Below the pieces are notes generated by a model, which did no database searches, was not told the origin of the DNA, and worked only from the letters and a program-made list of their open reading frames with translations. The position numbers and the translations under genes are program-made. 64,000 nt of DNA from Eledone cirrhosa (taxonomy: Eukaryota), in NCBI GenBank assembly GCA_964016885.1, contig OZ024743.1:350486001-350550000 (forward strand), given 5' to 3'. Shown here one piece after another: positions 3,800 to 45,320 of the stretch. Numbering within the stretch: position 1 is the stretch's first letter; each line of letters opens with the position of its first letter.

Positions 3800-6287
3800 T
3801 ATAACTCAAATTATCAATAACACCAAAGCCTACACTACTACCACTATCAACTTTACAGTTACCACTGACCATACTACTATTACTACTACTACCACCACCA
3901 CCATTACCGCTATCACAATTACCACAACACCCAGAAGAAACTTTATAACCTAAACTATCAATAACACCAAAGCCTACACCACTGCCACTATCAACTTTAC
4001 AGCTACCACTAACCATGCTACTACTACTACTACTACTACTTATACCACCACGACCACGACTACTACATTATAACCTAAACTATCAATAACACCAAAGCCT
4101 ACACCACTGCCACTATCAACTTTACAGCTACCACTAACCATGCTACTACTACTACTACTACTACTTATACCACCACGACCACGACTACTACATTATAACC
4201 TAAACTATCAATAACACCAAAGCCTACACCACTGCCACTATCAACTTTACAGCTACCACTAACCATGCTACTACTACTACTACTACTACTTATACCACCA
4301 CGACCACGACTACTACATTATAACCTAAACTATCAATAACACCAAGCCTACACCACTGCCACTATCAACTTTACAGCTACCACTAACCATACTACTACTA
4401 TTACTACTACTACTACTTATACCACCACGACCACGACTACTACATTATAACCTAAACTATCAATAACACCAAGCCTACACCACTGCCACTATCAACTTTA
4501 CAGCTACCACTAACCATACTACTACTATTACTACTACTACTACTTATACCACCACGACCACGACTACTACATTATAACCTAAACTATCAATAACACCAAG
4601 CCTACACCACTGCCACTATCAACTTTACAGCTACCACTAACCATACTACTACTATTACTACTACTACTACTTATACCACCACGACCACGACTACTACATT
4701 ATAACCTAAACTATCAATAACACCAAGCCTACACCACTGCCACTATCAACTTTACAGCTACCACTAACCATACTACTACTATTACTACTACTACTACTTA
4801 TACCACCACGACCACGACTACTACATTATAACCTAAACTATCAATAACACCAAGCCTACACCACTGCCACTATCAACTTTACAGCTACCACTAACCATAC
4901 TACTACTATTACTACTACTACTACTTATACCACCACGACCACGACTACTACATTATAACCTAAACTATCAATAACACCAAGCCTACACCACTGCCACTAT
5001 CAACTTTACAGCTACCACTAACCATACTACTACTATTACTACTACTACTACTTATACCACCACGACCACGACTACTACATTATAACCTAAACTATCAATA
5101 ACACCAAGCCTACACCACTGCCACTATCAACTTTACAGCTACCACTAACCATACTACTACTATTACTACTACTACTACTTATACCACCACGACCACGACT
5201 ACTACATTATAACCTAAACTATCAATAACACCAAGCCTACACCACTGCCACTATCAACTTTACAGCTACCACTAACCATACTACTACTATTACTACTACT
5301 ACTACTTATACCACCACGACCACGACTACTACATTATAACCTAAACTATCAATAACACCAAGCCTACACCACTGCCACTATCAACTTTACAGCTACCACT
5401 AACCATACTACTACTATTACTACTACTACTACTTATACCACCACGACCACGACTACTACATTATAACCTAAACTATCAATAACACCAAGCCTACACCACT
5501 GCCACTATCAACTTTACAGCTACCACTAACCATACTACTACTATTACTACTACTACTACTTATACCACCACGACCACGACTACTACATTATAACCTAAAC
5601 TATCAATAACACCAAGCCTACACCACTGCCACTATCAACTTTACAGCTACCACTAACCATACTACTACTATTACTACTACTACTACTTATACCACCACGA
5701 CCACGACTACTACATTATAACCTAAACTATCAATAACACCAAGCCTACACCACTGCCACTATCAACTTTACAGCTACCACTAACCATACTACTACTATTA
5801 CTACTACTACTACTTATACCACCACGACCACGACTACTACATTATAACCTAAACTATCAATAACACCAAGCCTACACCACTGCCACTATCAACTTTACAG
5901 CTACCACTAACCATACTACTACTATTACTACTACTACTACTTATACCACCACGACCACGACTACTACATTATAACCTAAACTATCAATAACACCAAGCCT
6001 ACACCACTGCCACTATCAACTTTACAGCTACCACTAACCATACTACTACTATTACTACTACTACTACTTATACCACCACGACCACGACTACTACATTATA
6101 ACCTAAACTATCAATAACACCAAGCCTACACCACTGCCACTATCAACTTTACAGCTACCACTAACCATACTACTACTATTACTACTACTACTACTTATAC
6201 CACCACGACCACGACTACTACATTATAACCTAAACTATCAATAACACCAAGCCTACACCACTGCCACTATCAACTTTACAGCTACCA
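3800..6287. repeat. Tandem minisatellite array: 3 x 125 bp + 15 x 127 bp + partial unit, preceded by a diverged proto-unit
   Basis: Marker TAACCTAAAC at 3946, 4071, 4196, 4321, 4448, 4575 ... 6226. A/C-rich on +, with an internal (CTA)n. Confidence 0.95.
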
Positions 6288-25456: not shown

Positions 25457-25490
25457 GTGGTCTTTCCCATCTTTTCCACTCCATTTCAAT

Positions 25491-28400
25491 ATGACCTCAC
25501 TCAGAATAGGCAGCATAAATGCGCATGGCTTGGGGTCGTCATGGAAGCAGGGCCACCTGCTCAACGACCTCAGTCACTAAACATAGATGTAGTGGCCATC
25601 AGCGAGACCAAAATCTCCGAAGCACGGGCCTTCGCACCGATCTTCGGCAGCTACGATGTGTACGCAACTCCCAGCCGTCCGGGATCGGGGGGAGGAGTTG
25701 CTGTGCTTTTTCGGAGATGTTTGGATCTTGCCATACGGGCCATCTTCCTGGACCCAGAAGATAAGTTGGTGGTGCTGGACATGACCAGCGGAGACGGGCA
25801 AGCTTTCAGGTTAGTGGCCGTCTATGCCCCGACAGGAGCAGGGCGGCCTGATTTCTTCCGGCGTCTGGAGGCCTTTCTTGGAACGTCCCGCTCTTTAGTG
25901 TTAGTGGGCGACTGGAACGGGATCTTAGATGCACGCGGGGATTGTGTGGGATTAGTGGATAGGGGAGGAGGGTGCAAGAGTCTCACCAACCTGCTCAGGC
26001 GTTTTGAACTGTCTGACATGTACCGATTGGATTTCCCGAATGTACCAATGTGGACTTGCACAAATCGCATAGGGTCATCCAGATCATATCTAGATAGAGT
26101 ATTTTGTAGGGAAATAGATAGGTCTAGCATAGGCTGTCCACAATTCAAGATAGTCAGCTACACAGACCACAAATTCGTGATCTGTGTGCTTGACTTAGAT
26201 AGGCTTCATAGACGAGGACCCGGATGCTGGAAGCTAAACGGGTCCTTACCAGCGCGCAAGGCCTACAGAGACCGGATTAGCGAACTAGTTAAGCGGGCGT
26301 TGACGGGGGCCATCGTCAACAACAAGTGGTGGTTTGCTCTGAAAAGAGCAATTAGAATAGAGTCCATTAGGTTTAGTAAGGCTTTAGCAATAGAGAAAAA
26401 TAGAGCAGAGGGAGAATTAGTTAGAAAATTAGACGAGGCCCTTTGCAAAGGCATCGCGACCGACGTACTTGCGGCGAAATTGGCCCATGACCAATTCTTC
26501 AATGTAAAGCACGAAGGCTGCGTTGTCAGAGCTAGGGTGCGTGCTCTCAGACACGAAGGGACGAAAGCCGTTCAATGGGCCCGAGTGGCGGAGGCTCGTC
26601 GTGGCAACAAAGCCACGATCCAGTCTTTGGTGGACCACGACAGGCGCATGCTACTCGATCCCGGGAAAAATGTGTGAAGCTTTTCAGCGACACTTCGCTC
26701 AACTGTTCGGGGGCAGCGGCGGGCCGGATCGAGGGATGGACTTTAGTGTCTACCTCGACGGCCACTGAAGCGGAGTGTTGCGAAAAGCCGATAACAGCCG
26801 CTGAAGTACGGGAGACAATGACTGGCTGCACAAGGGGTAAATCGCCTGGTTTGGATGGTCTGCCCTATGAACTTTACGTACAAATGCCAAGACTTGTTCG
26901 GAGGCCTCTTGGCGGACGTCTACTGCAACTGGTAACAGAACGGGAGAATTCTCAGCTCTGTGAACTGAGGAGCGGTGGCGCTGCTGAGAAAGGATCCGAA
27001 CAAGGGGGATAACATAGATAATTTTAGGCCCATAACTCTGCTAAACACAGAGTTCAAGATTTTGGCCAAGGTGCTAGCAAAGAGGTTGGCGCTTGTCGTT
27101 GGTGGTCTGGTGGGAGAGGCGCAGACATGCGCCATTCCCGACAGATCCATCCACGACAACCTCCACCTCATGCGATACATCGTAGAGAGGGTAGCTAGGG
27201 AACCTGGCACGGGTGGGTCTTTGATCAATTTAGATCAGTCGAAAGCCTTCGATAGGGTCGACCATCGTTACCTAGCGGTAGTCCTGAGTGCGGCTGGCTT
27301 TGGGCTCGTCTTCAGAGGCTGGATCACTGCCATGCACAGCGACATCTGCTCTGTGGTGAGAGTGAACGGTCACCTTTCGGAACCGTTCAACATCATGCGC
27401 TCGGTACGCCAGGGATGTCCCCTCTCGTCCCTCTTGTACGTATTGACTCTCGAGCCATTACTGCACAAACTGGAGACGTTAAGGGGAGTCCCGCGCGAAC
27501 TAGGATGCGGAAGATCCGTGTCAGCATATGCGGACGATGTCACCGTAGTGGTGTCGAACGCCAAACACATCGAGGCGATCGGCACTACACTAAGAGAATA
27601 CGAAGCGGTGACAGGAGCAATGATCAACCAGGAAAAGTCAGTGGGCCTGCAGCTCGGCACCTGGAGAGGCAGGTCCATGCCGTCCAACAGCGTCGTCGGG
27701 CGCTGGACGGACGGACCGGTTAAATTGCTAGGGGTCTGGTTCAGTCCGGACCTCCAGACGGACAAAAACTGGGACGAGGTGACGAGCAGGGTGGCTTCTC
27801 TCACCCAGAAATGGGCCGGGAGGAAGCTATCCCTGAAAGGTCGAGCGGAGGTGGCTAACGCGTACATCGCGTCCGTCATCTACTACCGCCTGACCGTCGT
27901 ACCTTGTCCTAATCCCCGCCTGACTGCGCTGGAGCGTTTGCTCTTACGCTTTTTGTGGAAGGGACGCGCTCCGATGGTCAGGCGGTCCATCTGCTGTCAA
28001 CACCCGCTACGTGGAGGGCTGGGCATGCCGTGGCTGATGATGCGCAGACACGCGCTCAGGCTACGACATCTCCACCTCTTCCTCAACGGTGATCAGGTGT
28101 GGTCGCCGTTTGCTAGACGCGTCTTTCCCCAGCTCGTCTCCTTGACGGAGCTGCAGTCCTGGGTGAAGCAAAGACCGAGATGGAGCGCTTGGAGACTGGA
28201 ATGTTTTCAGGCGCTCACAGCCATCGACCAATCGGGCAATGTGATCGGTGGAAACTCCACCCTGGCGTTCTATAGAGGATTAGTAGAGGGGAAGAGCGAC
28301 GACGTACTTGGAGAAACTCTAGGCGTCGACGAAAATCAACTAGCCAATCTCTTCGGAAGGACTTTCGGGCCGGGGCCTATGGACAACTTCCAGAAATCCC

Positions 28401-28894
28401 TGGCCTGGCAGTGCTACCGGGAAGCTTTGCCAGTTCGGGATAAACTCTACAGGCATGGAGGTGCAGTCATCCGGGCATGTCCGAGATGCGCGCAGGGCGA
28501 CGAAACCGTCCTACACGCACTCGTCCAGTGTCCGAAAATTGCTGACTTGTGGGTTTATGTCGAACACCTGCTGTCACGTGTAGGACGGATCCAGCTATCA
28601 GCTGAGTCCATCGTGAGGATTGCCCCGCCCTCTTCCTTTAGCCGGGAAGGGCAAGCAGTTTTTATCTGTCTGGTGGCCATGGCGAAAGAGATAGTATGGT
28701 GGACACGTTTGAAAGGGCTGAAGACGAGCACTTACCTCTTCGGTGATGCCCTGATTAACTTTTTCAAATTTCATTTGAAAAGGAAAATCAGGGTAGAGAG
28801 GGAAGTGCTCTCTTCCCAGCATTTTGTTGAAAGATGCGTGAGAGAAGCAAGTATGGCCCGAGTGAATGGGCCTACTCTGAGTATGTGTCTGTAA
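25491..28894 (+). pseudogene. LINE copy 2 ORF2 (endonuclease-RT); RT-to-end part (26975-28894) open for 639 aa
   Basis: ATG 25491 MTSLRIGSIN, frameshift near 25572; FRPITLLN, LDQSKAFDRVDH, VRQGCPLS, YADD, GGLG, CPRC..ETVLHALVQC; stops at 26933 and near 26966. Confidence 0.93.
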
Positions 28895-36410: not shown

Positions 36411-36599
36411 CATATATATATTATATATATATATATATGGAATAGAATGAAACAAAATTTCATTTCTCACTCTTAGTGCGGCACTTACTTAAATGTAAGT
36501 AAGTATGTACGTATACGTACATACATATATGTATACAGACGTACAGTAGTATGTATATATATACATACATGTACACATATATATATGCACGTATAGATA

Positions 36600-37712
<1,113 letters not shown>

Positions 37713-37778
37713 GTGCATATATATATATATGTGTACATGTATGTATATATATACATACTACTGTACGTCTGTATACAT

Positions 37779-38870
37779 ACGATGTACTAGTTTCAAGCTT
37801 ATTAGCTATCGCCAGCATCGTATACCTTCCTGCCAGATGGTGGAACGTCTGAAAGTATATAATTTCCTTATGCATATTAACGGCTGAGCAGCCTAATTTG
37901 CATATCGAATGAGTTCAGTCAGCTGGGCGCACCGAAAACGATAAATGGAATAGAATGAAACGAAATTTCATTTCTCATTCTTAGTACGGCACTTACTTAA
38001 ATGTAAGTATGTATGTACGTATACGTACATACATATATGTATACAGACGTACAGTAGTATGTATACATATACATACATGTACACATATATATATGCACGT
38101 ATCGGTTTACCGAATATTTATTGTAATACTCGGTTTGTTTGTAAACAAACAAACAGCCCGAATTACGCCGTACGGTGTTTAGGCAACCACGTCATCTTTT
38201 TGTTCAACACTGACACAGGAACGATGTACTAGTTTCAAGCTTATTAGCTATCGCCAGCATCGTATACCTTCCTGCCAGATGATTGAACGTCTTAAAGTCT
38301 GAAAGAAGAGTGAGAAATTAAATTTCGTTTCATTCTATTCCATTTATCGTTTTTGGTGCGCCCAGCCGACTGAACTCACTCGATATGCAAATTAGTCTGC
38401 TCAGCCGTTAATATGCATAAGGAAAGTATATACTTTCAGACGTTCAACCATCTGGCAGGAAGGTATACGATGCTGGCGATAGCTAATAAGCTTGAAACTA
38501 GTACATCGTTCCTGTGTCAGTGTTGAACAAAAATGTGACGTGGTTGCCTAAACACTGTACGGCCTAATTCGGGCTGTTTGATTGTTTACAAACAAACAAA
38601 CCGAGCATTATAATAAATGTTCGGTAAACCGATACGTGCATATATATATGTGTACATGTATATATATATATATGTGTACATGTTCCTGTCTCAGTGTTGA
38701 ACAAAAAGGTGACCTGCGTAATTCAGGCTGTTTGTTTGTCTATAATAAATGTTCGGTAAACTGATACGTGCATATATATATATATATGTGTACATGTATG
38801 TATATATATACATACTACTGTACATCTGAATACATATATGTATGTACGTATACGTACATACATACATACA
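37779..38870. repeat. Retrozyme-like 442-bp unit: tandem copies on - followed by an inverted copy on +; further fragments at 36438-36595 and 37709-37778
   Basis: ACGATGTACTAGTTTCAAGCTTATTAGCTATCGCCAGCATCGT at 37779 and 38221 (period 442), and its reverse complement at 38467-38509. Confidence 0.85.
38442..38528 (+). ncRNA. Type I hammerhead variant (core CTGGCGA)
   Basis: Stem I ACGATG/CATCGT, extended by CTGGCAGGA/TCCTG-TCAG and GTTCAAC/GTTGAAC. CTGGCGA 38473-38479; stem II AGCT-aata-AGCT; GAAA; A-CTAG-T; predicted cleavage after GUA at 38503. Confidence 0.7.
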
Positions 38871-38872
38871 TA

Positions 38873-44051: not shown

Positions 44052-44943
44052 CATAGTCCATGTTTTATCTATGAAGCCCTGGGTCGGCTTTGATTTAGAC
44101 CTATGAATAAAGTATTTGTAGCAATGACAATTGGACCCTGCTCTCGTGTATAATTTATATACACGCGTCGTACTATAATCATTGGTGTTGTGTAAAATGG
44201 TTATCTAGGTTGTTATTTTTTAGTTCCGTTCCACCCTTGATTAAGCAGAATTATTATCAAAGTCTTTCCATTCATAGCTATTCCACCTTTTTGCATAAAT
44301 AAGACTACAAAGTCCAATGTATCCTTCTTCTTTATTTTAACAGTAGAATGTGATTTGAGGGAATTTGAGGGAATTTGATTGATATTTCTAGCCAATCGAC
44401 TAAGTACAGGCTTCATCATTAGTGTGGGATCACTGAAGCGTTTAAAAGAGGGCTCCATTAGCGAGGAATTGTCGCTAATATGTGTGATTCTGCTCTGGTT
44501 ATTCTACAAAAATGCCACACAAGAGAAATTTAAATGACATCTTCAAACGAAGTATTATTTACAGCTTAGCTGGTTTATTATTTTGAAAGCTTCGTGTGCT
44601 TAACCTCAGTAGTCGAATAAAGTCAAATTTATTGATGTGAATCATTGTTTTATTATTTTGTTTACAGATCATTTATTTTTTACTTTCGCGATACTTTTTT
44701 ACTGTGACTTTATCTTATTACTAAGCCTGAAGGGGAAGTGTAATGCTGCCTAACAAAAAGCACGGTGTGATTAAAAAACAATTTAACATCAGAGATAAAT
44801 AAGATTTTTTTAATAACGTTCAGTAGACGTTCCCTATATATGTATATATTATGTTTATAGAGCATGATAATCAGTAATTCAGGTGAATCCGAAAAAGTAA
44901 TCGAAGTGATCCAATGAAGTATACATATATATATATATGAACG

Positions 44944-45187
44944 AAAAAGATGAAATCGAAAATGCATCTGGGGTGTTTTTAAGAATATTTATTTGTTTCC
45001 TTTACCGGTTTCACAGTTCTTATGCTTTTCAAAAGTAGTATTGAGATGGAGGGTTTGTGGTTGAGAAAAGGCACAAACCCTCCATCTCAATACTACTTTT
45101 GAAAAGCATAAGAACTGTGAAACCGGTAAAGGAAATAAATAAATATTCTTAAAAATACTCCAGTTGCATTTTCGATTTCATCTTTTT
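44944..45187. repeat. Hairpin with ~115-bp arms and 12-nt loop; arms carry GAAA-CCGG-TA (hammerhead 3' half)
   Basis: 44944-45059 versus 45072-45187. Confidence 0.85.
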
Positions 45188-45320
45188 TTCTTATACTTTC
45201 ACTTGTGTAGGACATCCAGTTTTTTATTTTCATTTTGAAAAAACACCACAGGACTCCGACGGCTGAGCTCCGGCCGTTTCGACAGCACCTACATCTGAAC
45301 TAAACCAGTAGTATTCTACT

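Follow-up and report, generated by a model that had tools for sequence, protein, structure and literature searches.

Why do three neighboring hammerhead ribozymes in the genome of Eledone cirrhosa share the same non-canonical core, CTGGCGA, in which the A at core position 6 is replaced by G (A6G)? They lie in the window analyzed here, a 64,000-nt stretch (C4:350,486,001-350,550,000 in a 3.0-Gb genome) that is AT-rich and abundant in TA microsatellites. An earlier note had read the shared core as a fixed, possibly active or attenuated, natural variant of a retrozyme-like subfamily. The answer that we favor, with considerable confidence, is that the locus is one inverted non-LTR retrozyme insertion, which a Penelope-like element (PLE) likely placed in a TA microsatellite by reverse transcription, and that the rare CTGGCGA core likely arose after insertion and likely spread over the three hammerheads by gene conversion. 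The family to which the locus belongs is more telling than its odd core.

The repeat itself is as the note described it. The two minus-strand cores lie 442 nt apart, which is the repeat period, and the units are arranged in tandem and then inverted. The three CTGGCGA cores start at 37815(-), 38257(-), and 38473(+), and every one is followed by an identical 14-nt stem II with a U-U closure and then by GAAACTAGTA. The GUA site of the plus-strand hammerhead ends at 38503, and ATGCAAAT begins 88 nt ahead of its core. That distance, which the note also gave to the element at 1-499, holds for the plus copy of this locus but is 100 nt in the 1-499 element; the block sequence likewise needs amending, as its TCTGC ending is private to the plus copy, with GCTGC found in 64 of 87 family matches. 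The boundaries must be moved as well. The insertion begins not at 37779 but at 36433. Its terminal fragment (36433-36594) is separated from the rest by about 1.1 kb of (TA)n, and the insertion also includes a short piece in inverted orientation at 37709-37779. The three copies do not count as three observations; all are parts of one insertion that contains a single full monomer. Its features are as follows.

36433-36594, minus strand: outer end of the left arm, monomer positions 285-446 (96% match to 37941-38102), which stops at the downstream family end site (E2) and is followed by (TA)n
36595-37708, no strand: (TA)n tract within the left arm (Tandem Repeats Finder, TRF, array 36550-37757)
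37709-37779, plus strand: short inverted monomer fragment, positions 285-351 by monomer alignment
37779-37835, minus strand: hammerhead 1, core start 37815, A6G at 37812, with the 3' strand of stem I cut after 6 nt
37785-38226, minus strand: the one full monomer from cleavage site to cleavage site, 442 nt, 37% GC, predicted to be highly self-paired as a circle (fold z -5.5 against 25 shuffles)
37893-37904, minus strand: second copy of the TATGCAAATTAG block
38217-38277, minus strand: hammerhead 2, core start 38257, A6G at 38254, in a 5'-truncated upstream unit that ends at 38298
38299-38305, no strand: inversion junction between the arms (left arm starts at 38298 on the minus strand, right arm at 38306 on the plus strand)
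38306-38347, plus strand: hairpin with the aatttcgtttc block, then end site E2 at 38347; it resembles one end of a resident PLE (fold, end classes, and similarity tests)
38384-38432, plus strand: TATGCAAATTAG block with TATATA 43 nt later, likely a U6-type promoter element (block shared with U6 loci, promoter function putative)
38449-38533, plus strand: tract identical in hammerheads 2 and 3, with hammerhead 1 sharing the part that it covers; likely a gene-conversion tract that spread A6G
38453-38521, plus strand: hammerhead 3, with bulged stem I, core 38473-38479 (A6G at 38476), stem II 38480-38493 with U-U closure and AAUA loop, palindromic stem III, and a predicted cut after 38503
38676-38871, plus strand: last, partly deleted unit of the right arm, which breaks off close to the family's upstream end site (E1), with (TA)n beyond

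The (TA)n tract at 36595-37708 was likely expanded or rearranged after insertion. Open frames of at least 250 amino acids across the locus fall only on the TA tract, and an Rfam scan of the window gave no match at the gathering score. Elsewhere in the window are a 127-bp tandem array at 3943-6287 (18.5 copies, 99% identity, strong C-over-G skew), a LINE-type element at 25457-28894 with an endonuclease domain followed by reverse transcriptase (RT) and zf-RVT domains in a second frame, and, at 1-499, a retrozyme of another family, family A, of about 466 nt with a canonical core at 236 and its upstream end site running into (TA)n. The window repeat belongs to a subfamily that we call family B.

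With a type I hammerhead in each 442-nt unit and 37% GC, the element is indeed retrozyme-like. The family combines one type I hammerhead per unit (canonical in the family core, A6G in the window copies), short head-to-tail, low-GC monomers without protein, and a predicted self-paired circle, all of them features of non-LTR retrozymes. Judged by its sequence, it would be a non-LTR retrozyme so far undescribed in the literature surveyed. A search for an octopus retrozyme surfaced no description, with subscription papers and supplements, which may describe the family, lying outside its scope; in the main text of an Octopus vulgaris repeat annotation, the words hammerhead, ribozyme, and retrozyme do not occur.

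The proposal that structure is kept across divergent subfamilies by covarying stems is borne out. In a set of 13 hand-picked hammerheads (12 distinct) from three families, or about three lineages, pairing is kept in 95.6% of cells, and both partners have changed in 12 of the 17 pairs, counts that are inflated by relatedness; none of 500 shuffles scored as high, and sliding the pairing partners lowers the paired fraction to 32-51%. The U-U pair that closes stem II is present in all three window copies, as claimed, but it is no local peculiarity: it occurs throughout family B and is known from the axolotl in the available text of PMC7229834. It is shared by L106, a family of 310 nt whose stems differ, and by one of the three copies seen of a fourth family (L222), and other hammerhead variants close stem II with C-G or G-C. 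Stem III is a six-base palindrome whose letters change across families while the palindrome is kept, an architecture said to need dimers (PMC4209133, in the part available). The palindrome, its covariation, and the literature suggest a dimer of hammerheads; in a two-copy co-fold of the hammerhead domain, the double hammerhead was not the lowest-energy form.

Canonical cores with this type of stem III gave 40,405 genomic matches (control, 19), so that the genome carries about 40,000 such hammerheads. Predicted circular monomer folds beat their shuffles (25 each) with z scores of -5.5 for the window and -8.1, -11.2, and -5.0 for other monomers, and 51 of 52 tandem periods fall at 422-538 nt. The L106 family is a tandem hammerhead repeat (L106:4800-6850) with a different palindromic stem III; a further family with a 15-nt stem II region, again with a different palindromic stem III, is seen at L041:1052-1121, L167:2992-3061, and L222:3-72. 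For family A, a 17-nt block matches the genome at 5,740 places, and the family forms arrays of about 30 units. One inverted insertion recurs at 11 places on C20 and C27 (L016-L026); nine of these are on C20 at intervals of about 100-340 kb, suggesting that a large segment is repeated.

How common is the CTGGCGA core? A 26-nt family pattern in which the two middle core bases were left free has 3,174 exact genomic matches (control, 0). Among the first 100 matches listed, 92 read CTGACGA, and CTGGCGA accounts for 46 of the 3,174 (1.45%), at 42 loci, with three of these matches inside the window. The note had held CTGGCGA to be fixed in the subfamily and perhaps the family consensus; at this frequency, and with no linked haplotype, it is neither. 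Genomic copies that read CTGACGA were one half of the outcome that the note had set against its own reading, the other half being loss of cleavage, and an active or attenuated fixed variant finds no support in the frequency or in the canonical sister copies. Across 75 clean columns, A>G changes average 0.87%, and A6G is unremarkable because the 12 highest such columns reach 1.4-8.1%. Public contigs from the same organism have A at 38476 in 640,515 of 640,613 depth units (99.98%; run X1); the four public runs are DNA-like contigs of uncertain kind, from at most two samples of one study that is possibly the assembly's own source, and they show allele balance only, with rare variants dropped. No RNA run was listed as containing the sequence, a result that weighs on neither side.

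The reading in which A6G marks a functional or attenuated natural core within a small active sublineage has some points in its favor. A6G is about 2.2 times as common as the control change A9G, which has 19 matches (42 versus 19 loci, p = 0.004), and it is common to all copies in 3 of 18 multi-hammerhead loci compared with 0 of 8 for A9G; in a phage, moreover, A6C occurs naturally in a hammerhead whose activity is low and depends on metal (PMC3088659 and PMC7151607, each in part). Its low frequency argues the other way, as do its rate, which lies inside the ordinary range of A columns, its scatter over all major haplotype backgrounds with no rare variant tied to it, and the coincidence of the loci that share it with short identical tracts. 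A haplotype table and an association test, used in the search for an A6G clade, revealed none, the weak associations being with common subfamily markers only. We consider an active sublineage highly improbable. The excess over A9G counts mildly against pure neutrality, and a slight tolerance or context effect is possible.

What then explains the sharing? Among the 18 multi-hammerhead A6G loci fetched, all copies carry the change in three (the window, L032, and L137), some in two, and one in 13, so that at least one sister hammerhead keeps A in 15 of the 18. In the window, L032, and L137, the columns beside the core show no difference between sister hammerheads (0 of 59, or 0 of 35 where the window copy is truncated), whereas elsewhere the same sister pairs differ at 8 of 154, 6 of 153, 10 of 97, and 6 of 101 columns (4-10%). 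For 91 other sister pairs, the same core-flanking columns differ by 5.5% on average, with zero difference in 10 of the 91, L032 and L137 included. Because 38449-38533 is identical in hammerheads 2 and 3 while the rest has diverged, a short conversion tract is suggested, and the A6G of all three window cores is likely one mutation that spread by local gene conversion. If the tract had instead been duplicated locally in recent times, the picture would be identical.

Alternatively, the RNA template could already have carried A6G, for example as a circular monomer copied round more than once, its dead core having been cut by the core of its neighbor in a dimer. The window copies do share other minor alleles, at monomer positions 307 and 369, and rare variants shared by all copies exist (18, versus 575 private ones); PLE insertion in vitro was also not blocked by hammerhead mutants in the available text of PMC11167929. 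A shared template, however, predicts the usual flank divergence (the 5.5% family mean), and there is none at any of the three sharing loci, which leaves this alternative improbable. We return to gene conversion, reading the alleles at 307 and 369 as features of the source copy. Published changes at position 6 give low activity, A6C sharply lowering cleavage at low Mg2+ (PMC3088659, PMC7151607, from partial texts), and by analogy A6G likely impairs cleavage; our literature search surfaced no published study of an A6G hammerhead. The claim of a fixed non-canonical core thus comes down to ordinary decay and carries little weight, and the case is a caution that conversion can give the copies of one inverted insertion the same mutation, which then mimics a fixed variant.

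The ends of the insertions are more informative. There are two preferred 3' ends, about 57-67 nt apart, both of which run into (TA)n, with variable 5' truncation and frequent inversion. In the 143 loci of family B, TA follows 117 ends, of which 61 are downstream-site and 56 upstream-site ends, compared with 13 and 21 (34) that end otherwise. Where TA ends are present on both strands, 24 of 26 loci use one site per arm, two use the downstream site twice, and none uses the upstream site twice (p = 5e-6); 64 loci have a TA end on one strand only and 53 have none. The window obeys this one-site-per-arm rule, with the downstream site at 36433 and about the upstream site at 38871, and family A likewise ends at two sites. 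Inserted copies differ from the family majority by about 3%.

Such anatomy recalls PLEs, for which the available text of PMC8557442 describes a "tail" at one end only, partial-tandem and inverted 5'-truncated copies, and a microsatellite bias. In vitro, purified PLE protein cuts and extends both strands and uses two RNA start sites, and hammerhead mutants do not block the reaction (PMC11167929, in part). Like non-autonomous PLE derivatives, the family has partial-tandem or inverted 5'-truncated insertions and two fixed 3' ends in a microsatellite, and its genome contains an element with RT and GIY-YIG domains. A GIY-YIG search returned 10,595 first-look candidates, of which 150 were scored and 50 PLE loci examined. 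One of these, L221, has a 937-amino acid open frame with an RT match just below the Pfam cut-off, a GIY-YIG match above it, and the linker Cx4CxxC reported for Neptune elements (PMC8557442, in part). It also carries a minimal hammerhead whose stem III is palindromic, and its two ends, spaced by about 64 nt, lie in (TA)n. Inverted loci of the L221 type have one end per arm in eight of nine cases, in a set mostly fetched with a query that favored one end.

The last 30 nt of the retrozyme best match the first end of L221 among 9,958 windows (score 15, versus 11 for the next), and 7 of 3,000 shuffles matched any of six PLE ends as well. The match of the family A end is not significant (757 of 3,000 shuffles as high), and the register is shifted, the second end of the retrozyme resembling the first end of the L221-type PLE. 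Extended homology between the monomer and PLE terminal repeats (pLTRs) was absent from the 50 PLE loci, which showed the 30-nt end only, and two other PLE families with TA ends are present in the genome. We conclude that a PLE likely mobilizes the retrozyme; given the insignificant family A end, the shifted register, the absence of longer homology, and the two other families, the L221 family is a candidate for that role.

Movement by a TA-targeting LINE or by DNA-level recombination would fit the lack of long pLTR homology in the loci examined and the presence of LINEs, one of them inside the window, and a microsatellite target would hide target-site duplications. Two fixed ends, used one per arm, and a partial-tandem and inverted layout are nevertheless described PLE features (PMC8557442, in part), and the resident PLE mirrors the two-end, one-per-arm pattern. 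We therefore give a LINE or recombination very little credence and retain a PLE as the likely agent.

Several observations concern the PLEs themselves. The family of L221 (2250-7730), L226, and L232 is a young, TA-targeting one, with top copies 98-99% alike at the end. Its minimal hammerhead shows U3-A8 covariation, a core type that recurs in a second PLE family; the core of a third family is canonical. The window contains a short inverted pair of L221-type pLTR ends at 44935-45250, with minimal hammerheads at 45003(-) and 45119(+) and a left arm that reaches to about the first end site, within TA. An AT-rich motif located near PLE genes is not the shared signal.

How might such an element be transcribed? 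The octamer block is conserved in families A and B even though the partner with which it is predicted to pair is not, which points to constraint on the DNA. The same block lies at -77 to -79 in four of six U6 rows (three independent loci; the remaining two rows may be pseudogenes). A form with one mismatch is seen at -78 of the best-scoring U6atac row (one of 10 rows), and the block is absent from U1 (0 of 7 rows) and U2 (0 of 2 rows). The predicted transcription start falls just ahead of hammerhead stem I. T-runs are at most 5 in the monomers examined, compared with U6 terminators of 6-10, so read-through is plausible. Block-to-TATA spacing differs from that of the host, at 43-44 nt in families B and A versus 47-49 in U6/U6atac. 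The match is observed; whether the block functions as a U6-type promoter element we regard as evenly balanced. The monomer has no convincing match to a U1/U2-type promoter element, and a loose search of four arrays for the distal snRNA element gave only scattered matches with two mismatches. Among the papers listed by a search for retrozymes together with the U6 promoter, none treated both.

Among the host snRNA promoters (loci L291-L293, L341; L311-L321, L271, L273), U6 and U6atac carry an octamer-like element at -78 and a TATA at -30. Those of U1 and U2 have in common another short element, near -57, together with an AT-rich box at about -33. Farther upstream, at -253 to -287 (about -255 to -290), U1, U2, and U6 all have a distal element rich in pyrimidines.

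A possible life cycle can be assembled from these parts. Tandem units would be transcribed, likely from the internal U6-type element. Two hammerheads would pair through the palindromic stem III, whose architecture and covariation are observed, and would cut out circularizable monomers, as known retrozymes do. Weighing against this scheme, eight of nine frog retrozyme dimers failed to cleave in a published in-vitro test. A Penelope-like RT/GIY-YIG protein, the presumed enzyme, would nick both strands of (TA)n and prime at two sites about 60 nt apart, one per strand, and this two-site priming would yield 5'-truncated arms joined as an inverted repeat, in keeping with the observed ends and the one-site-per-arm pattern. 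The inserted copies would then decay to about 3% from the family majority, A6G being one such change that likely impairs cleavage. More tentatively, as a possibility that we hold to be somewhat less likely than not, these elements may be three-part parasites in which a hammerhead gated by dimer formation is joined to a U6-type Pol III promoter acquired by capture and to a sequence that mimics the two-site priming signal of PLEs. The one-site-per-arm inverted insertions would on this proposal be direct genomic evidence of Penelope twin priming of animal retrozymes, and the L221-type protein would be a partner, open to testing, of about 40,000 ribozymes within a single genome. The transcription and insertion of animal retrozymes are called open in the available part of bioRxiv 10.64898/2026.07.22.740005; as this genome supplies a named candidate enzyme (the 937-amino acid frame) and a candidate promoter, along with a simple target and two exactly placed start sites, both questions become testable at the bench.

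Overall, the family mixes features of several known systems, each compared here with the portion of its description that was available. It resembles the animal non-LTR retrozymes of Cervera and de la Pena 2020 (PMC7229834) in its short, low-GC tandem repeats, its type I hammerhead per unit, its self-paired monomer, and its tens of thousands of copies, and it is like axolotl HHR_Amex2 of the same source in that helix II has a U-U mismatch at its base and helix III is 2 bp long. The circles of PMC7229834 measure about 170-400 nt, however, whereas 51 of 52 periods here correspond to monomers of 422-538 nt, and the present copies, known from DNA alone, are mostly dispersed, truncated, and often inverted, with two fixed ends in (TA)n. 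A hammerhead repeat with an internal small-RNA-gene promoter has reported precedents in newt satellite 2 (snRNA-type promoter, Pol II) and the schistosome satellite (Pol III promoter) (PMC2220036); the block here differs in that it matches the upstream regions of U6/U6atac and not those of U1/U2 in the same genome. The phage Bcep176 A6C hammerhead (PMC3088659, PMC7151607) also departs from the canonical core at position 6, but with a different base and as the native form at its locus, whereas A6G is a 1.45% minority among canonical sisters.

With Neptune-type PLEs and their pLTR hammerheads (PMC8557442, PMC4209133, PMC11167929), the family shares partial-tandem and inverted copies, a "tail" at one end, microsatellite targeting, and a dimer-needing palindromic stem III. 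It differs from them in having no open reading frame and a full hammerhead with a bulged stem I rather than the minimal pLTR type; its ends are spaced about 57-67 nt apart rather than 30-40, and only its 30-nt end resembles the resident PLE. The same retrozyme-PLE partnership, with retrozymes as non-autonomous PLE derivatives, is proposed in bioRxiv 10.64898/2026.07.22.740005. In its available text, the case is built from co-occurrence and from homology to pLTRs, for the most part in vertebrates, and the mechanism of mobilization is left open, whereas the partnership suggested here is read from the anatomy of the insertions.
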